Assembly (NCBI GenBank): GCA_035695545.1
Contig: DASRRV010000019.1
Location: 411-64,410, forward strand
Origin: Candidatus Sulfotelmatobacter sp.
GTDB taxonomy: Bacteria > Acidobacteriota > Terriglobia > Terriglobales > Acidobacteriaceae
DNA length: 64,000 nucleotides
Direction of reading: 5' to 3'
The notes under the pieces were generated by a model. The model was not told the DNA's origin and ran no database searches. It saw only the letters and a program-made list of their open reading frames with translations. Positions 37,140 to 46,928 of the stretch are shown here, one piece after another (positions within the stretch are counted from its first letter, which is position 1; each line of letters begins with the position of its first letter). The position numbers were made by a program, and so were the translations under genes.

Positions 37140-37739
37140 CTACTCCTCCGAGTATGCCAACTCCTCCAAGGCCTGTCGCGCAGGAGCCCCCGCCAGCGCA
37201 GCGTTCCCGTACTCGAATCCCTTCTCAAACGCTTTCAAATTCAACTCGCGGAAACTCGGTGGCACAGAATCGGCGACAGCTTTGCGCACGGCGTCGGCTG
37301 TCAGAAGCTTGGTGACCGCCGTGAAGAATCCCACCATCACCGAATTCAGGACCATGCGTTTTCCCAGTTCTTCGGCGATGCGCGTTGCGGGAATGCTGTA
37401 AACCTTCTTGTCGTGATTGAGGTTCGAGACGCGCACCAGATCCTCCTCCACGATCAGAAGTCCACCCTGCTTCAGTTCCGGCGCGAAACGGTTGTAAGCT
37501 TCCTGTGACATCACGACCATGATGTCGGGCCGGGTCAGGTACGGATACAGCACCGGATTGTCGGAGAGAATCAACTGCGCGCTGCACGCCCCGCCGCGCG
37601 CCTCCGGGCCGAAGTTCTGCGTCATCGTGGCGAAGCCGTTTTCGTAAATCGACGCCGCTTTGCCCAGCACAATCGCCGAGAGGATGACCCCCTGGCCTCC
37701 GAAGCCTGCCACGCGGATTTCTGTTAACCGCATACGCAC
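37140..37739 (-). CDS. korC: 2-oxoacid:ferredoxin oxidoreductase, gamma subunit
   Basis: 199 aa, IRVAGFGGQGVILSAIVLGKAA is typical of the gamma subunit. Last gene of the delta-alpha-beta-gamma cluster. Substrate specificity is not established. Confidence 0.88.
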   Translation of the reverse strand: MRMRLTEIRVAGFGGQGVILSAIVLGKAASIYENGFATMTQNFGPEARGGACSAQLILSDNPVLYPYLTRPDIMVVMSQEAYNRFAPELKQGGLLIVEEDLVRVSNLNHDKKVYSIPATRIAEELGKRMVLNSVMVGFFTAVTKLLTADAVRKAVADSVPPSFRELNLKAFEKGFEYGNAALAGAPARQALEELAYSEE

Positions 37740-38605
37740 TCCATTTCTGGCGCTGCGATATATCGCTCGCCCAGCGATTCCACATACTGCGCGCGCATCA
37801 TGGTTTGATAGTCGGGCCGGTCGCGGTCCACGAACTTGCCCACCGCAATTTCTCCGTTGAGCGTGAGCCCCACTTCGCTGGTGGGCGCGCCGTGCTTCAC
37901 TTTACTTTTCTCCTTGTAAAACTTCATGGTGTCGAGTCCATCGCCCATCTTGTTGCGACGTTGGTAGAGCGTCGGGCATGGCGAAATGACTTCGATGAAG
38001 GAGAATCCCTTTTTCTGGAACGCTTCGCTGATCGAGCGCGCCAGTTGCCGCACGTGGAAGGTCGTCCAGCGGGCGACATACACGGCGCCCGCGGCCTCGA
38101 CCAGATGCGGCAGGTTGAACGAAGGTTCAAACGTTCCGTAAGGATTCGTCGATGTGGTCGCATGGCCCGGAGTGGTCGGTGCAGTCTGGCCGCCTGTCAT
38201 CGCATAAATCAGGTTGTTCACGCAGATGACTTTCAGGTCGATGTTGCGCCGCGCCGCGTGAATCAGATGGTTCCCGCCGATCGCCGACAAATCTCCATCG
38301 CCCGAGTACACGACGACGTTCAGCTTCGGGTTCGCCAGCTTCAGGCCAGTCGCAAACGGGATCGCGCGTCCGTGAGTCGTGTGAAACGAATCGAGCTTCA
38401 CATAGCCCGCTACGCGCCCGGTGCAGCCGATACCCGAGACCAGAGCTAGAGTCTGGAGATCGATCTTTGATTCGATCAGCGCATGGGCAAAGGAGTTCAC
38501 CGTGGTGCCGATGCCGCATCCCGGGCACCAGATGTGCGGCATGCGGTCGCTGCGCAGAAACTGCTCTACGGGATTGACGGTGTCGTCATTCAGAACATTC
38601 AGCAT
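37724..38605 (-). CDS. korB: 2-oxoacid:ferredoxin oxidoreductase, beta (TPP-binding) subunit
   Basis: 293 aa with WCPGCG and GDGD TPP-binding motifs. Confidence 0.92.
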   Translation of the reverse strand: MLNVLNDDTVNPVEQFLRSDRMPHIWCPGCGIGTTVNSFAHALIESKIDLQTLALVSGIGCTGRVAGYVKLDSFHTTHGRAIPFATGLKLANPKLNVVVYSGDGDLSAIGGNHLIHAARRNIDLKVICVNNLIYAMTGGQTAPTTPGHATTSTNPYGTFEPSFNLPHLVEAAGAVYVARWTTFHVRQLARSISEAFQKKGFSFIEVISPCPTLYQRRNKMGDGLDTMKFYKEKSKVKHGAPTSEVGLTLNGEIAVGKFVDRDRPDYQTMMRAQYVESLGERYIAAPEMECVCG

Positions 38606-39759
38606 CGGCTTGCCTCCACGATGGCGTTCAGGATTTCCTCAGGATTGTGGACTCCTCCGCCGGCGTGCGAAACGGCGTAAGTCTGCGCTTTTCCGCCCGC
38701 AGCGCGCTCGACCTCGCGCACCATCTGTCCCAGGTTGAGCTCGGGCATAACAAACGCCTTAACGTGCGCGGCCAGATCCGCAATCTTCTTGTCGGGGAAG
38801 GGCCACGCCGTGATGATCCGAAGTTTCCCGACTTTCATGCCGCGATCGCGCGCCATGTCGATGGCTCGCTGCGCCACTCGCGAAGTGATTCCGTACGAAA
38901 CCACGACCACGTCGGCATCCCCCAGCCGATCTTCTTCAAACAGGCAAATCCGGTCGGCCGCCGAGCGAATCTTGTTCTGCAGGCGCCGCACCAGTTTGTC
39001 CTGCACCGGCGGCGTCATGTTCGGATAACCCCGTTCGTCGTGCGTCAGACCCGTAACGTGGAACTTGTAGCCGTCCCCGGCGTGCGCCATCTCCGGCACC
39101 ATGTCACCGTTGGTGCCATAAGGCAGGTAGTCTTCGACCGGCTTGCGAGTGTGCTTGCGCGGTGTGACTTCGATCTGGTCGGCCGGCGGAATCACCACTT
39201 TCTCCGTCATGTGTCCGACCACTTCGTCCATCATGAACATCACGGGAACGCGAAATTCTTCCGCGAAGTTGAACGCTTTGATCGTCAGATCGAAGCACTC
39301 CTGTGGGGAGTTCGGGCACAGTGCAATGATCTCGTAATCGCCATGCGATCCCCAGCGCGCCTGCAGCATGTCGGCTTGCGCTGGAAGTGTCGGCAGCCCG
39401 GTCGAGGGGCCTCCGCGCTGCACATCGACGAATACGCACGGCGTCTCCGTCATGGCGGCGTAGCCAATATGCTCCATCATCAGCGAGAAACCGGGCCCGG
39501 ACGTTACCGTGAACGCCTTGGCGCCGCCCCATACTCCGCCTTGCAGCGCGATCGAGGCCGCGAGTTCGTCTTCCATTTGTATGAAGGTTCCGCCCACCAT
39601 GGGGACGCGCGCCGCGAACCGCTCCACCACTTCGGTCGAAGGCGTAATCGGATATCCGGCAGCAAATCTTGCACCCGCCGCCAGCGCCCCTTCGCAGCAG
39701 GCATGGTCACCGTCGAGAAAGTGGGTGCCGGTCAAAACTCCATGGGGATCCGCTTTCAT
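38599..39759 (-). CDS. korA: 2-oxoacid:ferredoxin oxidoreductase, alpha subunit
   Basis: 386 aa with an alpha-subunit-like sequence (GYPITPSTEV). Confidence 0.92.
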   Translation of the reverse strand: MKADPHGVLTGTHFLDGDHACCEGALAAGARFAAGYPITPSTEVVERFAARVPMVGGTFIQMEDELAASIALQGGVWGGAKAFTVTSGPGFSLMMEHIGYAAMTETPCVFVDVQRGGPSTGLPTLPAQADMLQARWGSHGDYEIIALCPNSPQECFDLTIKAFNFAEEFRVPVMFMMDEVVGHMTEKVVIPPADQIEVTPRKHTRKPVEDYLPYGTNGDMVPEMAHAGDGYKFHVTGLTHDERGYPNMTPPVQDKLVRRLQNKIRSAADRICLFEEDRLGDADVVVVSYGITSRVAQRAIDMARDRGMKVGKLRIITAWPFPDKKIADLAAHVKAFVMPELNLGQMVREVERAAGGKAQTYAVSHAGGGVHNPEEILNAIVEASRC

Positions 39760-40007
39760 TTCTCACCTCCGCTCGCTTTCTGCATCTTGGCTTCCGCGAC
39801 TTTGGTTCCGTTGATCGCGAAGTCGGGGCAGTACATTCCGCACAAATCACAGCCACTGCATTTTTCCGGATGCACCACGTGCGGCGGATGGTAGCCCTTC
39901 GAGTTGAAGGCGGAAGAGAGCGCCAGCACGTGCGTGGGACAAAACTCCACGCAAAAGCCACAGGCCTTGCAGCGCTCAACGACGATCGAAACACGTCCTT
40001 TTGCCAC
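39756..40007 (-). CDS. korD: 2-oxoacid:ferredoxin oxidoreductase, delta (2x[4Fe-4S] ferredoxin) subunit
   Basis: 83 aa with two CxxCxxCxxxCP-type clusters (CKACGFCVEFCP, CSGCDLCGMYCP). Confidence 0.88.
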   Translation of the reverse strand: MAKGRVSIVVERCKACGFCVEFCPTHVLALSSAFNSKGYHPPHVVHPEKCSGCDLCGMYCPDFAINGTKVAEAKMQKASGGEK

Positions 40008-40361
40008 GCGATCCCCCAGCTAAGGAGCAACAATCACTCCCAGGTAGGACTCGATTATCCGGTGGAGGCCGTGTGCGACGGTGTGACTGGCATCACAGAA
40101 CCGGGTGAGGACAGGCACGAGCGATTTTGCGCCTCGAAACCCGGGGGAAAGAGCCCTCTGCAAGCCTGATTGCAGGTCCGTGGGGCCATTTTGCTTCCCG
40201 TTCATGAGTTCGGGGTGCAAGCCTCACGGGTGACTCCTATCACTGGCAAACGTGACGGTGAGCACAAAGAAGCAACCCTCAACGCAAGCCCTCGGGTTAC
40301 ACTTTGCGGCATGTGCATCGGGGCGAGTTCGCTTCCGGTGCTCATAGACAGCGTGGAGGCC

Positions 40362-41120
40362 ATGTCCGTGATTCCTCTGACCTCGAACATGCCGGCAGGG
40401 TTGCCCGCGAACGTCCGCCAGGTTCTGGCTGACTTCCTTTCCAGCGCGCAGAAGTCGTTCGCCGACGACCTGTTGTCGGCCGTGCTCTTTGGCAGCGCGG
40501 CAGAGGGCGCTCTGCGGAAGTCATCGGATGTGAACCTGATCCTGGTCCTGCGGCGTTATCATCCCGACCGTGCTGAACGCCTCCGAAGCGCGCTCGGCGC
40601 TGCTGAAGCGGCGATACTCCTGCGCGTCATGTTCCTCGTACAGGATGAAATTCCAGCGGCCTGCGAAGCGTTCGCGCAAAAGTTCAGCGACATTGTCCGC
40701 CGACGCGTCGCGTTACTAGGGTCCGACCCTTTTGCAGGCCTTTCGATCCCGCGGACGGCCCAGGTGCGGCGTCTCCGCCAGGTCTCGTTGAACCTCTTGC
40801 TGCGCTTGCGCGAGATACACTCCGGTCAGGACAGTGGCAGCAGATCCGCGCTCCACATGCTGGCGGATTCTACTGGCGCGCTGCGATCAAGCGCCGTTCT
40901 GCTACTGCTTCTCGAAACCGGCAATGCCCCCAAGCCGAAGCCAGCGCTGATTCAAGTCGCCGAACAAGTCGCACCCGGAAAGTTCACGGCTGCGATGGCT
41001 AAGCTCTCACAATTGCGCGAGACCAACACTCTCTCCCGTCCGGATGCCCACGAGGTGATGATCGCCATGATGGAGCTGACGGCGGCTATACACGCGCGTG
41101 CAGCCGCACTTCGGGAATGA
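40362..41120 (+). CDS. nucleotidyltransferase-domain protein (KNTase-like, variant GS...DVN motif), start uncertain
   Basis: The ORF is open from 40170. LFGSAAEGALRKSSDVNLILVL fits the Pol-beta NTase motif, except that Asn replaces the second acidic residue. It has a helical C-terminal half. Stop lies 12 nt before the next gene. Confidence 0.6.
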   Translation: MSVIPLTSNMPAGLPANVRQVLADFLSSAQKSFADDLLSAVLFGSAAEGALRKSSDVNLILVLRRYHPDRAERLRSALGAAEAAILLRVMFLVQDEIPAACEAFAQKFSDIVRRRVALLGSDPFAGLSIPRTAQVRRLRQVSLNLLLRLREIHSGQDSGSRSALHMLADSTGALRSSAVLLLLLETGNAPKPKPALIQVAEQVAPGKFTAAMAKLSQLRETNTLSRPDAHEVMIAMMELTAAIHARAAALRE

Positions 41121-41132
41121 ACGCGAGTACGC

Positions 41133-42038
41133 ATGAATCCTTTCGATCTGCGAGGACCGGAGTTTCTGTTCTTCTACGTTCTGCTGTCGGGGGCGGTGAT
41201 TCTCGCAGTCATTTGGCTGCGCGAGTGGATGGAGAGTGGACCGACGCCTCCGGTGCATCTCGAGGATCCCTATTTCTTTGCCTACCTCCGCGGCGGGATG
41301 AACGAGGTCTTTCGCGCCGCGATCGTCGTGCTGCTGGATCGCGGTTGGCTCATTGCAGAAGGCGACATGGTGCATCGCCGCGACGACGTCGAGCCGAATC
41401 CTGAGCAGCCATCAATTGAGCAGGAAGTCTTGTCGTTCTTCTATACGCCCAGGCCTGCCTACGAAGCCCTGAAAAGCAGTCCACTCGGGACCGCGGCCTC
41501 CACCTACGAGCAGCAAACCGTTGAGCTGGATTTGATGCCGAACCAACTCGTCAAAGGGAAGCGTCAAATCCTGTGTGGCATCGCGGCCTGCGCGCTGCTC
41601 GGCGTGTCGCTGACCAAGATTGCAATAGCGCTGTCTCGCGGCCGAACCAATCTTCTGTTTCTAATCATCCTGACGGTCGTGGTGCAGTGGATTCTGGTAC
41701 AGGTCGCTGTCCCCGGCCCGACGGCGAAAGGGCGTGCTCTCCTTCGCGATATCCAGTCTCTGTTTAGCGATTTGAAAGGACGCCGGCCCTTCCTGCGTCC
41801 CGGCGCCGGCACCAAAGAAATCGCGTGGCTCGTGGGAGTATTTGGCCTGGGCTCTCTTCCAAGTGACGGCTTTCCGGACGTGAAGGCTCTGTTTCCTCAG
41901 AGCTCCACCAACTTCACTCTCAGCGGGGGAACCGGAGGCAGTTGCGGTGCCGCGAGCAGTTGTGGCGGTGGAGGCGGTTGCGGGGGCGGCTGCGGAGGCG
42001 GTGGGTGCGGCGGAGGGTGCGGAGGTTGCGGGAGCTGA
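41133..42038 (+). CDS. membrane protein with Gly/Cys-rich C-terminal tail (TIGR04222-like by recollection)
   Basis: 301 aa. N-terminus MNPFDLRGPEFLFFYVLLSGAVILAVIW, two further TM helices, and the C-terminus SGGTGGSCGAASSCGGGGGCGGGCGGGGCGGGCGGCGS. Confidence 0.75.
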   Translation: MNPFDLRGPEFLFFYVLLSGAVILAVIWLREWMESGPTPPVHLEDPYFFAYLRGGMNEVFRAAIVVLLDRGWLIAEGDMVHRRDDVEPNPEQPSIEQEVLSFFYTPRPAYEALKSSPLGTAASTYEQQTVELDLMPNQLVKGKRQILCGIAACALLGVSLTKIAIALSRGRTNLLFLIILTVVVQWILVQVAVPGPTAKGRALLRDIQSLFSDLKGRRPFLRPGAGTKEIAWLVGVFGLGSLPSDGFPDVKALFPQSSTNFTLSGGTGGSCGAASSCGGGGGCGGGCGGGGCGGGCGGCGS

Positions 42039-42039
42039 G

Positions 42040-43173
42040 ATGACATTGCTTTCCCCAGATCGCGTGGGCCTGGGCTGGCGGACTGAATTGGCCGCCGGCA
42101 TCTTCGCCCATCAGGACCAAATCGACGTGGTGGAAGTCATCGCGGAGGACTGGTTCGACGTCCCGCGGTCGAAGGCCTCCGCGCTGCGAACGCTCGCAAG
42201 GCAGATTCCCGTGCAATTGCATGGAACCAGCGCAGGCCTGGCCTCGGCGGCACCCGTGGAAGAGAAGCGATTGGCGAAAATGGCGCGTCTGGTGGACCTG
42301 CTTCAACCTGAAGCCTGGTCGGAGCACCTCGCCTTCGTCCGCGCCGGAGGTTGGGAGATCGGTCATCTGGCGGCAGTCCCGCGAAACTCAGGCACAGTGG
42401 AGAACTCAGCCGCGAACGTGGCACGAGCTCGGCAGGTCGTGGGTACGGCTCCCATGGTGGAGAATATCGCTACGCTGATCGCGCCTCCGGCAAGTCCGCT
42501 AACGGAGGTCGAGTGGCTGACTCAAGTGGCGACCGCCTCGGATGCTCCCCTGCTCCTCGACCTCCACAACTTGTATGCGAACGCAGTCAATTTTGGACTG
42601 GATCGCTCCACTGCGCCCATGGATGCCTTGCGGCACCTTCCTCTGGACCGTGTGCGCACGGTGCACATCGCGGGTGGGCACTGGATCAATGCGCGACACA
42701 GCGACCGGCAGGAGCAACGGTTACTCGATGATCATTTGCATCCCGTCCCCGACGCGGTGTTCGCGATGCTGGAAGAATTAGCGGCGCTGGCGCCCCAACC
42801 GCTCACCGTCGTGCTCGAGAGGGATGGGTCTTATCCGGCGATGGACGCGCTATTGCTCGAACTGCAATTGGCCAGGGCAGCTATGCAGCGAGGCCGGGAG
42901 CGCAAGGCTCAGACGGTGGCCAGACCCACCAGTCTCGCGCAGAGACCCGGCGTGGGAGCTAACTCCGCGAATCTTGAGGCCTTGTTGGCACGGATCTACG
43001 TCGATGAACCCTTGCGCGCCACCTTTCTTGCTGCGCCGGAAGAATTTGCACATCGCCATGACCTCAATCCTGATGACACGGCGGCTCTGATTTCGATTGA
43101 TCGCACCGGACTCGCGATGGCCGCGCGGTCTTTCGCCAGAAAGCGCCATTTGAAACAGGCACACAAGCATTAG
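42040..43173 (+). CDS. DUF692 / multinuclear non-heme iron oxidase (MNIO, MbnB-like) with extra ~95-aa C-terminal domain
   Basis: ATG lies 1 nt after the upstream stop. DUF692 hallmarks: GLGWRTEL, VVEVIAEDWF, VQLHGTS, SEHLAF, VENIATL, LLLDLHNLYANAVNFG, VHIAGGH. I rejected the ORF-track start at 41947 because it overlaps the Gly/Cys tail. Confidence 0.82.
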   Translation: MTLLSPDRVGLGWRTELAAGIFAHQDQIDVVEVIAEDWFDVPRSKASALRTLARQIPVQLHGTSAGLASAAPVEEKRLAKMARLVDLLQPEAWSEHLAFVRAGGWEIGHLAAVPRNSGTVENSAANVARARQVVGTAPMVENIATLIAPPASPLTEVEWLTQVATASDAPLLLDLHNLYANAVNFGLDRSTAPMDALRHLPLDRVRTVHIAGGHWINARHSDRQEQRLLDDHLHPVPDAVFAMLEELAALAPQPLTVVLERDGSYPAMDALLLELQLARAAMQRGRERKAQTVARPTSLAQRPGVGANSANLEALLARIYVDEPLRATFLAAPEEFAHRHDLNPDDTAALISIDRTGLAMAARSFARKRHLKQAHKH

Positions 43174-43216
43174 CCATCGACAGCGATGACAGCGCATTCC
43201 AACGGACCGGAGATGG

Positions 43217-43681
43217 TTGTCAACTACTCTCCGAACCTCGACCTTCGGATCAGCGTACTGCGTGCACAAAGTACTGGCGGCGAACGTCGGGCGGGGCTCG
43301 AAGGGACACGGGAGCATCGCTCGTCCCGACTATTGTTTCGAAGTGAACTGTTGCCTGCGGCATCCCACCGGGGCTTTCACCTACTCCGCCAACGACATCT
43401 ATTTCGATCTGGAGTCGCTGGCAGCATTCTGCGAGGAACTTCGTGGGATGCAACGGGGTCTTAGACAAGAAGCGGCCTTGCACGATCCGGGAGAGATGGT
43501 GGTTTTGCGGCTGAAAGGGAACGCGCGCGGGCTGCAACTGACACTCAACGTCCGAGAGTATCTCGCCCCGTCGATAGCGACGCTAAATGCCAGCTTTGAC
43601 GTCGACTACGATTTGTTTGTCAACAAGCTCCACGCAGAAATGGGACGGTATCTCGAAGAGCTGCGCCAAGTTGAAATCTAA
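43217..43681 (+). CDS. hypothetical protein (start uncertain)
   Basis: 154-aa ORF on the same strand, 43 nt after the MNIO gene. No family recognised. Confidence 0.5.
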   Translation: MSTTLRTSTFGSAYCVHKVLAANVGRGSKGHGSIARPDYCFEVNCCLRHPTGAFTYSANDIYFDLESLAAFCEELRGMQRGLRQEAALHDPGEMVVLRLKGNARGLQLTLNVREYLAPSIATLNASFDVDYDLFVNKLHAEMGRYLEELRQVEI

Positions 43682-43707
43682 GAATCCAGTGGCACGCGAG
43701 CCGCCTG

Positions 43708-44769
43708 TTGCCGCCTCATGTTCGCCGGGTTTGCCTCTATCCAGCGAACCCACTACACTCGGACTTTTGCCGCGATATTGGCCGCTACTCGCTGAATCAT
43801 GGCGGCCGCCGCCGCAGGAGCCTTTTGGAAATCCTCGACCTCAGGCATTTTTCCTCTGTCGATCTGCGTCCCCTGCTCGATGACGAGACGCAGGTCTGGT
43901 CGCGCCTGCTCTCGTGGGATTACTCCAGCTCGGCGAGCATGATTCTGCGCTACGTCGACTCGAAAATCCTGCCGGGTTATGCAGCCGTCGATCGCGGCCG
44001 CGTCTTCGGCTACTCATTCTTCGTATATGAAGGCAGCAAGGGAGTGATCGGCGACCTCTACGTGACCAACGGTACACGTCTGCCCAACGCCCGCGAGGTC
44101 GAGTTGAAGCTGTTGACCCACGTCATCGAGACGCTGCAGCAGTCTCCGGGGATCCATCGCGTGGAGGCACAACTGCTTGCGCATGAGGCCAACGTCGTCT
44201 CGCGCCCTTTCCTCGAGACCGGATTCCAGCGGCATCCACGCTTGTTCATGGTGCTGGCGTTGGGCAAGACGGCCCAGGAGAAAATTCCTCCTCATCCTGA
44301 CGTGGAGATTCGCCCCTGGAGTGAGTCCGATTATCAACCTTCGGCTGCCGTGATCACGGCGGCATATCGCGGCCATGTCGATGCCCAAATCAACGACCAG
44401 TACCACACGCTGAGTGGATCCCTGCGCTTCCTGAACAACATTGTGCGCTTTCCGGGATGCGGAGTATTCGACGCCGAGTCGTCGTTCGTGGCGCTCGACC
44501 GCAAGGCGAAAACCTTGGTAGCGCTGATCTTGTGCTCGCGCGTGCGCGACGATGTCGGCCACGTAACCCAAGTCTGCGTTCTGCCCGAGTACCGTTCCCG
44601 CCACATCGGCGAATCGCTGCTGGCCGCAACCGTAGGCAATCTGCGGAAAAGAAACTTCTCGCTACTGTCGCTAACGGTAACGGAGGCGAATGCCGGCGCA
44701 GTCGCGCTGTATCGACGCTTGAACTTTGATACGAAGAGGATTTTTGACGCGTTCGTGTGGGAAGGGTGA
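43708..44769 (+). CDS. GNAT-family N-acetyltransferase, two tandem GNAT-like halves (start uncertain)
   Basis: The C-terminal half has the acetyl-CoA-binding pattern VCVLPEYRSRHIGESLL...ANAGAVALYRRLNF. Confidence 0.7.
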   Translation: MPPHVRRVCLYPANPLHSDFCRDIGRYSLNHGGRRRRSLLEILDLRHFSSVDLRPLLDDETQVWSRLLSWDYSSSASMILRYVDSKILPGYAAVDRGRVFGYSFFVYEGSKGVIGDLYVTNGTRLPNAREVELKLLTHVIETLQQSPGIHRVEAQLLAHEANVVSRPFLETGFQRHPRLFMVLALGKTAQEKIPPHPDVEIRPWSESDYQPSAAVITAAYRGHVDAQINDQYHTLSGSLRFLNNIVRFPGCGVFDAESSFVALDRKAKTLVALILCSRVRDDVGHVTQVCVLPEYRSRHIGESLLAATVGNLRKRNFSLLSLTVTEANAGAVALYRRLNFDTKRIFDAFVWEG

Positions 44770-44775
44770 GGCTGG

Positions 44776-44793
44776 TGTTAGCTTCTAGCTGCT
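44776..44793. repeat. CTAGCT word array (short)
   Basis: gttagcttctagctgcta after the GNAT stop. Confidence 0.5.
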
Positions 44794-44974
44794 ACCTCCG
44801 CAACACCCACATCGCCCAGCCCGCCACCAGCACTCCGCCCAGGAACATCGCGAAGCAGTACAGGCCGTAGCGCACCATCTCGCGAGTGGTCTCGCGGTGG
44901 GTGATGCCGAACACGATGGCAGCGAACAGAGCAAACACCGCCGCCGCGCTGAAGTGATTCAGTGTAATGGTCAC
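44792..44974 (-). CDS. small hypothetical membrane protein
   Basis: 60-aa ORF with two hydrophobic helices. Confidence 0.35.
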   Translation of the reverse strand: MTITLNHFSAAAVFALFAAIVFGITHRETTREMVRYGLYCFAMFLGGVLVAGWAMWVLRR

Positions 44975-45035: not shown

Positions 45036-45452
45036 TCATTGCTTTTTCCCGATCGCGATGTGGTACGCGTCGGCGACGGAAATAAAATTCAGCAGTCCGG
45101 CGACGATCATAAACTTGGTACCGTAATCAGCCGTGGCGAACTGGATCGCGCCCTGACCCCAGTCCATGGCCACCGTGATCAAGTAAAGCCCGCCCGCGCC
45201 GATGTCTCCAATGAATCCGAGAATGTCGAGAATATCGCCGCCGTTCGCCTTGTAGATGCGGCCCTGCATCCCCAGCCCGAGCAGGAACAGGGTCACGACC
45301 GATATGAACAGCAGTGCGCCGCGAATCCAGCGCTTCTGAATCATGTGTCCCGCGCCCGGAATCAGCCAGCCGATCGCGGGGGCGACCACCGCCATCACGG
45401 TCAGGGGCTCCGGTTGCGCCACGTTTGTTTTTTCTGTGGTGGAATTTGCCAT
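45036..45452 (-). CDS. hypothetical membrane protein
   Basis: 138 aa with 4 TM segments. It lies directly downstream of the aminopeptidase gene, whose stop is adjacent at 45453. Confidence 0.6.
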   Translation of the reverse strand: MANSTTEKTNVAQPEPLTVMAVVAPAIGWLIPGAGHMIQKRWIRGALLFISVVTLFLLGLGMQGRIYKANGGDILDILGFIGDIGAGGLYLITVAMDWGQGAIQFATADYGTKFMIVAGLLNFISVADAYHIAIGKKQ

Positions 45453-46856: not shown

Positions 46857-46928
46857 TGGACCCGGCGGGATTCGAATCCGCGCCTGCCGCTTGGACAGAG
46901 CGATGTGTTCCCGTTACACCACGGGCCC
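46857..46928 (-). tRNA. tRNA, anticodon GUC (Asp) by hand fold, with atypical positions
   Basis: Minus-strand cloverleaf: acceptor GGGCCCG/CGGGUCC, D arm GUGU-AACGGGA-ACAC, anticodon arm UCGCU-CUGUCCA-AGCGG, variable CAGGC, T arm GCGGA-UUCGAAU-CCCGC, discriminator A. No encoded CCA. Confidence 0.7.

Follow-up and report, generated by a model that had tools for sequence, protein, structure and literature searches.

A candidate system for thiooxazole modification of the cysteine-rich tail of an integral membrane protein

We analysed a 64,000-nucleotide (nt) stretch of a Candidatus Sulfotelmatobacter genome (Acidobacteriota; contig DASRRV010000019.1, positions 411 to 64,410), hereafter the window, and describe an operon of three genes and four modules with a conserved architecture. 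It encodes a nucleotidyltransferase-like (NTase-like) protein, a TIGR04222 membrane protein that ends in a glycine- and cysteine-rich tail, and a multinuclear non-heme iron oxidase (MNIO/DUF692) that carries a C-terminal helical module (Table 1). We propose, with a probability of about 0.6, that this operon post-translationally modifies the C-terminal tail of the integral membrane protein, converting tail cysteines to 5-thiooxazoles. The parts of the proposal differ in strength. Comparison of sequences makes it very probable that the tail is the substrate of the oxidase; a 5-thiooxazole product is moderately probable by analogy with characterized enzymes; and metal binding as the function, again by analogy, is a more tentative suggestion.

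The TIGR04222 protein begins MNPFDLRGPEFLFFYVLLSGAVILAVIW and terminates SCGAASSCGGGGGCGGGCGGGGCGGGCGGCGS in the open reading frame (ORF) reading of the window. The oxidase gene that follows (42040-43173, forward strand; 377 residues) starts at an ATG 1 nt past the upstream TGA at 42036-42038, in the arrangement TGA G ATG, and a GGGAG Shine–Dalgarno sequence for the oxidase sits within the final TIGR04222 codons. The membrane protein matches the TIGR04222 model with 95.8 bits (cut-off 43; residues 14-243 on profile positions 1-229 of 229), which bears out a family label that a preliminary description of this locus had given; the ORF limits, stop and start codons, transmembrane (TM) helices and seven cysteines in the last 32 residues reported there all hold as well. 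A database entry with 100% identity to the protein, from a metagenome-assembled genome of Candidatus Sulfotelmatobacter (Acidobacteriota), bears the NCBI name ‘TIGR04222 domain-containing membrane protein’.

We surveyed the gene neighbourhood in 80 genomes, one per species, that had been sampled with the TIGR04222 N-terminal domain alone as the query, and scored all six-frame ORFs against hidden Markov models (HMMs) for the four components. The oxidase lies directly 3′ of the TIGR04222 gene, on the same strand, in 73 of the 76 loci with enough sequence, with a median of 2 nt between the TIGR04222 stop and the first aligned codon of the oxidase. Sampled in this way, the co-occurrence of the two families is far beyond chance, a condition that the preliminary description had set, and together they form a near-obligate subfamily with a short, invariant target motif. 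No further neighbour is conserved around the module in the 81 loci compared, besides the oxidase, a module of the NHLP/Os1348 fold and the NTase-like gene. A scan of positions 39700-44900 for promoters and terminators found nothing beyond chance.

The tail of the presumed substrate is highly constrained. Its seven cysteines fall in [G/S]-C-G units that close with the motif C-G4-C-G3-C-G2-C-G-S, and residues 259-301 are disordered in the AlphaFold2 model (predicted local distance difference test (pLDDT) < 50). A terminus of the form C-G(3-5)-C-G(2-4)-C-GG-C-G-x ends 102 of 120 homologues, the bodies of which are only about 40% identical, and C-G4-C-G3-C-G2-C-G-[S/G] is the commonest exact version. 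Across the 828 tail cysteines of these 120 proteins, glycine comes next in 90% and glycine or serine precedes in 95%. The last 15 residues are identical in 15 loci that encode them with 15 different DNA sequences (mean pairwise identity 0.79); synonymous sites are near saturation and the peptide is fixed. The DNA repeats are imperfect and use all four glycine codons. The terminal motif is under strong purifying selection at the peptide level, and the tail is more than chance low complexity or compositional drift.

The oxidase frame stays open upstream through the tail-coding DNA (a mechanical ORF runs from GTG 41947, 41947-43173 on the forward strand), and a single insertion or deletion in the GGN/TGC region therefore produces false ‘fusion’ proteins or scrambled tails. 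One such protein, P0378 (683 amino acids), had been a candidate for a natural fusion of TIGR04222, oxidase and helical module that would fix the topology; we rejected it because the sequence after its third TM helix is an alternative frame of tail DNA, which marks it as a frameshifted call. The same artefact, with a scrambled tail, is present in survey locus L023. Database entries of the TIGR04222 family should be read with such tail frameshifts in mind.

The DUF692 identity that the preliminary description had assigned to the downstream protein is secure: it matches PF05114 (MbnB_TglH_ChrH) with 215.8 bits (cut-off 25) over residues 9-282 and profile positions 2-262 of 263, and every motif quoted there is present. 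Its best NCBIfam matches are to BufB (NF050167, 174.6 bits; cut-off 310) and HvfB (NF003818, 149 bits; cut-off 360), and the MbnB model gives 28.9 bits (cut-off 325). Its closest relatives in the Protein Data Bank (PDB) are 3bww (E = 3e-24) and TglH 8hci (E = 1e-12), and the ligand motifs align with both. Residues H61, E95/H96, E141/N142, D174/N177, H209, D230/D231/H232/H234 and E260 show at least 97% conservation across 120 homologues, and their placement on individual iron sites would presumably follow the MbnB structures. The enzyme looks catalytically competent and belongs to a BufB/HvfB-related group.

The oxidase is missing from three survey loci, all of them Nitrospirota. Two of these, L041 and L053, have a different gene coupled to the stop of TIGR04222, which encodes a radical S-adenosylmethionine (SAM)/SPASM enzyme that scores 537.3 and 538 bits against TIGR04082, the SbtM model (cut-off 350). 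Both enzymes cover profile positions 195-516 of 516, with Radical_SAM and SPASM Pfam matches, and are missing an N-terminal region of about 195 residues. The third locus, L073 (5977-8136), has an NTase-like gene and a TIGR04222 gene with a complete Gly/Cys tail, followed by hemC, and has no oxidase or SbtM within 6 kb; the gene for its maturase may lie elsewhere, or its tail may go unmodified.

A metagenome scan with the SbtM-like enzyme returned at least 562 relatives, far more than the distribution in Geobacter and Desulfobacteria that SbtM is said to have, and 80 loci were kept (L085-L164). Among those with at least 1 kb on both sides, enzymes of the short form adjoin TIGR04222 in 11 of 15 loci, and enzymes of the long form, with their additional N-terminal stretch of about 180-310 residues without a Pfam match, in 0 of 31 (Fisher P = 1e-7). 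Short-form genes are often convergent or co-directional with TIGR04222. Neither an MNIO nor the NHLP-like module occurs in any of these 80 metagenome loci, and an SbtM-type enzyme is not encoded in the window. Two unrelated enzymes, one O2-dependent and one anaerobic, occupy the same position beside the same [G/S]-C-G tail. A parallel is provided by the aerobic and anaerobic formylglycine-generating enzymes (FGE and anSME). SbtM turns the Cys or Sec of a conserved Gly-Cys motif into a thio(seleno)oxazole that is 4 Da lighter and absorbs at 304 nm (PMC9204691), and the BufB/HvfB/FonB group of MNIOs installs 5-thiooxazoles at K-C-G sites, the products of which bind copper (PMC13097082). Because the replacement enzyme and the replaced one are linked by this heterocycle, the swap is the strongest argument that the tail would be the substrate and 5-thiooxazole the product.

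The oxidase continues for 95 residues past its PF05114 match. Of its 120 closest homologues, 110 have an extension of this kind, in which the core LExxLARxYVD...R..FL..P...GL...AL..ID..GL..AA.SF..KR is conserved. When 38 extension sequences were compared with family models, 36 matched NF038399 (the Os1348 family; counted at E < 0.1, best E = 2.4e-9), 16 matched TIGR04509, 18 the Pfam family LigA and 9 Frankia_peptide. The extension of the window protein reaches 24.8-27.5 bits against NF038399, below the cut-off of 40, so the relation to Os1348 is at the level of the clan (NHLP/LigA) and not one of family membership. A sequence search of the PDB with the window extension alone gave no match; the family profile retrieved Os1348, the nitrile hydratase alpha arms and the borosin precursor SonA. 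AlphaFold2 predicts five helices (pLDDT 84.7), for which the top Foldseek match is Os1348 6lk7 (TM-score 0.62-0.66, probability 0.99); SonA and a proteusin NHLP leader rank next. No similarity to DUF2063 NGO1945 3dee or TglI 8hi7 (by profile, to E = 10 for 3dee, and by Foldseek) or to MbnC (by Foldseek) was detected. We rejected the Os1348 gene cluster as a link between the module and an MNIO: it holds an acetyltransferase, a HEXXH peptidase-like protein and a SagB-type dehydrogenase, and no MNIO.

The NHLP-like module is present in 73 of 73 MNIO-type loci, as a separate ORF in 56 and fused to the oxidase, as in the window, in 17. Beside the extension-less oxidases of L001 and L003 it is its own gene, of 73 or 81 codons, overlapping the oxidase stop. 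An exhaustive profile search yielded 1,180 representative module clusters, mostly stand-alone proteins of 65-110 amino acids. The preliminary description had seen no MbnC- or DUF2063-type partner gene, and HMM searches of all adjacent ORFs agree, with no match to DUF2063 or MbnC. It had further suggested that the extension could serve as a recruiting module. A separable unit that is either fused or encoded as a coupled gene fits a partner role of this kind; its fold is that of the NHLP/Os1348/LigA clan and not of the RRE (RiPP recognition element, RiPP being a peptide that is made on the ribosome and modified after translation) or DUF2063 type. Recruitment by the module may be proposed on these grounds.

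A median of 16 residues, rich in R, L, W and F, follows the module domain; Cys occurs there in 19 and GG in 9 of 141 stand-alone modules, and no core-peptide-like sequence is seen. In P0347 (158 amino acids), a stand-alone module is followed by two predicted TM helices. The R/L/W/F-rich ends and the TM helices of P0347 suggest membrane docking, and the partner module may generally be held at the membrane surface.

Upstream of the membrane protein lies an NTase-like gene, conserved in the family, that the preliminary description had missed. The mechanical ORF runs from TTG 40170; translation probably begins at ATG 40362, for a protein of 252 amino acids (homologues, 241-252), and the stop lies 12 nt 5′ of the TIGR04222 ATG. 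Pfam matches fall below cut-off (Polbeta, 22.0 against 26.9 bits; NTP_transf_2, 18.4 against 21), and the nearest PDB entry for a homologue is the aminoglycoside nucleotidyltransferase AadA ANT(3'')(9) (4cs6, E = 4e-4) over about 50 N-terminal residues only. The protein resembles AadA in its length and in the motif LYGSA..G.L...SD. The family motif is G-S...S-D-V-N, in which the second Asp of AadA SDIDLL is Asn in at least 90% of 72 sequences. The canonical pattern hG[GS]-x(9-13)-D-h-[DE]-h is thereby broken, with G-S and the first Asp kept and the second carboxylate replaced by Asn. The gene lies directly upstream of TIGR04222 in 64 of 74 MNIO-type loci and is also found in 11 of the 12 SbtM-type loci that carry TIGR04222. 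The NTase-like protein tracks the substrate, and the NHLP-like module tracks the oxidase.

Where the modification could take place depends on how the membrane protein is oriented. Hydropathy gives three hydrophobic segments (Table 1), and an AlphaFold2 model built with 56 homologues (mean pLDDT 81.2) places TM helices at residues 8-34, 138-169 and 174-192. The mean apparent insertion energy (dGapp, best 19-mer, averaged over 120 homologues) is -2.9 kcal/mol for TM1, 0.0 for TM2 and -1.1 for TM3. A further segment, ‘h4’ (residues 229-243), was rejected as a TM helix: its AlphaFold2 helix spans only 10 residues (228-237), and its dGapp is +4.7 kcal/mol in the family mean and +7.8 in the window protein. 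The protein has three TM helices, so the soluble loop-1 domain and the tail share one side of the membrane. TM1 is preceded by the conserved motif MNPFDLxGPEF, in which N2, P3, G8, P9, F11 and L12 are invariant. The loop-1 domain is confidently folded (residues 35-137, pLDDT ~90) in an arrangement of helix, helix, beta-hairpin and helices. This pattern had hinted at a winged-helix or RRE-like domain, an idea that we dropped, as a Foldseek search of the model against the PDB returned no relative (all E > 2, TM-score < 0.3).

The distribution of lysine and arginine (K+R; means over the same 120 homologues) is uneven. The N-terminus has 0.42, with 1.7 acidic residues; the flank after TM1 has 2.8, the flank before TM2 3.6, the TM2-TM3 loop 1.9 and the 35 residues after TM3 5.5 (8 in the window protein). 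Summed over the TM flanks, the side with loop 1 and the C-terminus carries about 12 and the opposite side 2.3, a bias that under the positive-inside rule favours an N-out orientation, with domain and tail in the cytoplasm. The accessory proteins are cytoplasmic by nature, which agrees with a cytoplasmic tail; in the four accessory proteins or modules examined, no signal peptide is recognisable. Radical SAM enzymes need the cytoplasm. Many TIGR04222 homologues match DUF2207_C (PF20990), for which the window protein itself gives only E = 0.059; for proteins of the DUF2207 family, the N-terminus is predicted to lie outside the cell and the Gly/Ser-rich C-terminus inside it (PMC10457818). On charge and on this likeness we lean towards a cytoplasmic tail, contrary to a published periplasmic prediction that is taken up below.

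We hypothesize that the oxidase uses O2 to turn up to seven tail cysteines into 5-thiooxazole heterocycles. The NHLP/Os1348-fold module would stand in for the DUF2063-RRE partner of related enzymes, and may also help the enzyme to dock at the membrane. The NTase-like protein, which accompanies the substrate whichever maturase is present, could assist the tail as an adaptor or chaperone, or could be a second enzyme that modifies it. Modification would take place at the cytoplasmic face, and the tail most likely remains there. Bufferins and captophorins suggest, by analogy, that the product could be a membrane-tethered chain of poly-thiooxazole thiolates that binds soft metals such as Cu(I). More speculatively still, the operon could represent a widespread four-module system for thiooxazole formation on an integral membrane protein at the cytoplasmic face. 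The substrate would bring a ‘core peptide’ of its own in the form of the C-terminal tail with about seven [G/S]-C-G units, two unrelated but isofunctional maturases would serve it (MNIO plus NHLP-type partner in aerobes, short-form SbtM in anaerobes), and the catalytically altered NTase-like protein would be a common substrate-handling factor that replaces the RRE.

The substrate idea is itself already in print, and so was not new in the preliminary description. Antoine, Leprevost, Jacob-Dubuisson and colleagues (Microb Genom 2025; PMC12452194) collected more than 3,500 TIGR04222 proteins, reported clusters of TIGR04222 with MNIO genes and put forward, as the MNIO substrate, the Cys-rich segment at the C-terminus of a TIGR04222 subset. 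In their survey, TIGR04222 genes adjoin 11% of MNIO genes and account for 40% of the Cys-containing, signal-peptide-less proteins encoded just before MNIO genes; no DUF2063 partner was found, and ‘PME-type 2’ partners, which resemble NGO1945 (3dee) or TglI (8hi7) by HHpred or in structure and lack a DUF2063 Pfam match, accompany at least 10% of clusters, with no partner to be seen in many. The text of that paper has no occurrence of NHLP/LigA or of nucleotidyltransferases and does not mention replacement by a radical SAM enzyme. What is new here is the tight linkage of oxidase and TIGR04222 in this subfamily, the [G/S]-C-G tail unit with selection on its terminal motif, the NHLP-fold partner that is always present, the conserved NTase-like gene, the SbtM swap and the topology question; the very small ‘adjamnio-V’ proteins of PMC12452194 could be the same module.

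Several observations weigh against our proposal. The oxidase falls below the equivalog cut-offs of both BufB and HvfB and is a member of neither family, and MNIOs catalyse many types of reaction, which makes thiooxazole chemistry here an extrapolation. The SbtM-type loci come from different lineages, so that the isofunctionality of the two maturases is a presumption. The NTase-like protein is without one canonical catalytic carboxylate. Finally, no metal-homeostasis gene is found in the flanks within the window or among the conserved neighbours.

The alternative that we take most seriously, although we consider it unlikely, keeps the chemistry and the substrate and moves the loop-1 domain and tail to the periplasm, with modification before translocation and a membrane-anchored, bufferin-like chelating chain as the product. 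For two other TIGR04222 proteins, the prediction in PMC12452194 is of domains outside the cytoplasm and a tail in the periplasm, and bufferins are modified before Sec export and act in the periplasm (PMC12452194). The conserved R-G-R of the six-residue TM2-TM3 loop, taken alone, also argues for this orientation: on short loops alone, the positive-inside rule points to N-in. The published prediction and the R-G-R both count against the cytoplasmic tail that we prefer. Against them stand the charge sums over all TM flanks (12 versus 2.3) and the eight basic residues after TM3 in the window protein, together with the intracellular C-terminus predicted for the DUF2207 relatives. A tail leaving a membrane-bound ribosome would, moreover, be open only briefly to slow oxidation at multiple sites, and no partner able to delay export is evident.

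It is far less probable that the tail is functional but unmodified, as a direct metal or Fe-S ligand or a flexible linker, and that the oxidase acts on another substrate. Cys-rich tails can bind metals unmodified. Across the whole family, about one-third of genomes with TIGR04222 carry no MNIO, which also counts against our own proposal, and more than one-quarter of TIGR04222 proteins have no C-proximal Cys (PMC12452194); the Nitrospirota locus L073, with no maturase within 6 kb, can be added to these. In the subfamily studied here, however, the two genes are translationally coupled and adjacent in 96% of loci, the 81 loci compared share no further ORF that might be a precursor, and the oxidase is swapped specifically for a peptide-Cys maturase with a known Gly-Cys site. 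Slightly less probable again is a scheme in which the NHLP/Os1348-like module is the real substrate, a RiPP-like precursor sometimes fused to its enzyme, and TIGR04222 is an anchor, exporter or immunity protein. The clan does consist of RiPP precursor and leader domains (NF038399, TIGR04509, Frankia_peptide, SonA), and fusion and fission of enzyme and precursor have a precedent in borosins. MNIOs can also modify residues other than Cys (table in PMC12452194). Yet the domain has no core after it, as the counts for Cys and GG in stand-alone modules indicate; the module is in no SbtM-type locus, although TIGR04222 and its tail are retained there; and the extreme conservation at the peptide level lies in the TIGR04222 tail.

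The closest published counterparts are the TIGR04222-MNIO clusters of PMC12452194, which share the two families, their order, the Cys-rich low-complexity C-terminus and the absence of a DUF2063 (PME-type 1) partner; they comprise the whole heterogeneous family, mostly from Actinomycetota, and the MNIO association is looser there than in the subfamily described here. Bufferins and captophorins (BufA/BufBC, HvfA/HvfBC, FonA/FonBC; PMC11626156, PMC13097082) involve the same large MNIO group, which converts several x-C-G cysteines to copper-binding 5-thiooxazoles. Their precursors are soluble, with a Sec signal peptide, and their enzymes work with a DUF2063-RRE partner (PME1), all features that are absent here; in their place are the tail of a polytopic membrane protein with an uncleaved TM1, a partner of the NHLP/Os1348 fold and an additional NTase-like protein. 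In the methanobactin system (MbnA/MbnBC), an MNIO likewise acts on Cys residues of a ribosomal substrate to form copper-binding groups, and a small partner is encoded just downstream; in contrast to our proposal, the product is an oxazolone/thioamide, the peptide is secreted and the partner is MbnC.

Other systems resemble single components. SbtM/SbtA (PMC9204691; TIGR04082) shares the conversion of Gly-Cys to a thio(seleno)oxazole, and the short form takes the place of the oxidase beside TIGR04222; SbtM is a radical SAM/SPASM enzyme of unrelated fold and is O2-independent, and the canonical enzyme acts on a small selenopeptide and has about 200 extra N-terminal residues, which, having no Pfam match, we do not claim as an RRE. 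In the borosins (SonM/SonA, OphMA), the NHLP/Nif11 leaders and Os1348, the same small helical fold, fused or separate, binds a RiPP enzyme to another polypeptide. There the domain is part of a precursor with a core peptide, whereas here no core is present and the companion is an MNIO. DUF2207 proteins (PF09972/PF20990; Streptococcus mutans SMU.243, PMC10457818) likewise combine a TM core with a C-terminus of low complexity, rich in Gly and Ser, for which an intracellular position is predicted; they differ in their large extracellular N-terminal domain, Cys-free tails and lack of an associated maturase.

If the broader four-module reading is correct, this would be the first thiooxazole modification of a membrane protein and the first aerobic/anaerobic pair of maturases for this heterocycle, and would introduce a new type of MNIO partner. 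A thiooxazole chain tethered to the cytoplasmic side of the membrane would widen the biology of the heterocycle past periplasmic copper buffering. MNIO enzymes attract active research in natural products and metallo-enzymology, and among the substrates proposed for them that are proteins and not peptides, TIGR04222 forms the largest class. The comparisons made here render the hypothesis of TIGR04222-tail modification directly testable: the SbtM swap predicts 5-thiooxazole, and the NHLP/Os1348-fold module and the NTase-like protein are candidates for the missing role of DUF2063-RRE. The subfamily is compact and its target motif short and invariant, which makes it a good experimental entry point.

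Table 1. Components of the operon and their domains, in window coordinates
Feature	Position	Strand	Basis
AadA-like nucleotidyltransferase-fold protein, first gene of the module	40362..41120	+	Weak Pfam and PDB matches, synteny
TIGR04222 membrane protein, 301 amino acids, presumed substrate	41133..42038	+	TIGR04222 HMM, AlphaFold2
TM1, residues 11-29	41163..41219	+	Hydropathy, dGapp, AlphaFold2
Loop-1 soluble domain, residues 30-145	41220..41567	+	AlphaFold2, confidently folded
TM2 (146-167), six-residue loop SRGRTN, TM3 (174-193)	41568..41711	+	Hydropathy, dGapp, AlphaFold2
Post-TM3 region, residues 194-262, basic, short helices	41712..41918	+	K+R count, AlphaFold2, dGapp
Gly/Cys/Ser tail, residues 263-301, seven Cys, presumed modification target	41919..42035	+	AlphaFold2 disorder, homologue alignment
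MNIO/DUF692 catalytic domain, oxidase residues 1-282	42040..42885	+	PF05114
Linker, oxidase residues 283-310, variable, basic, low-complexity	42886..42969	+	Poor alignment, length variation in 120 homologues
NHLP/Os1348-fold helical module, oxidase residues 311-377 and stop codon, presumed MNIO partner	42970..43173	+	HMMs, AlphaFold2, Foldseek

Two genes downstream of the oxidase were considered as parts of the system and rejected. The GNAT gene at 43708-44769 (+), a two-part acetyltransferase with Acetyltransf_1 at residues 255-340, is syntenic only in the five closest relatives. In L006 and L007 it follows the oxidase directly, and in L005 (6752-9109) oxidase and GNAT share a single stop-to-stop frame of 786 amino acids. 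An acetyltransferase is also present in the cluster of Os1348, possibly by coincidence. The 154-codon ORF at 43217-43681 (+) has no homologue in the 80 loci. It encodes five Cys and lies in an insert of about 535 nt between oxidase and GNAT, which L006 and L007 lack; its only family match, of the WapI-like immunity type, is faint (E = 0.11). The ORF is perhaps an insertion specific to this lineage, or perhaps no gene.

An operon for a four-subunit 2-oxoacid:ferredoxin oxidoreductase (37140-40007, reverse strand) runs divergently to the NTase-like gene, with POR gamma, thiamine pyrophosphate-binding beta, POR_N alpha and 2x[4Fe-4S] delta subunits; it indicates anaerobic-type metabolism, though the organism carries an O2-dependent maturase. 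Farther downstream, a DUF6677 membrane protein (45036-45452, reverse strand; 138.6 bits) lies beside an M24 metallopeptidase and is unconnected with the operon. The sole RNA gene in the window (ARAGORN; Rfam at gathering thresholds) is a tRNA-Asp (GTC) at 46857-46928 on the reverse strand.

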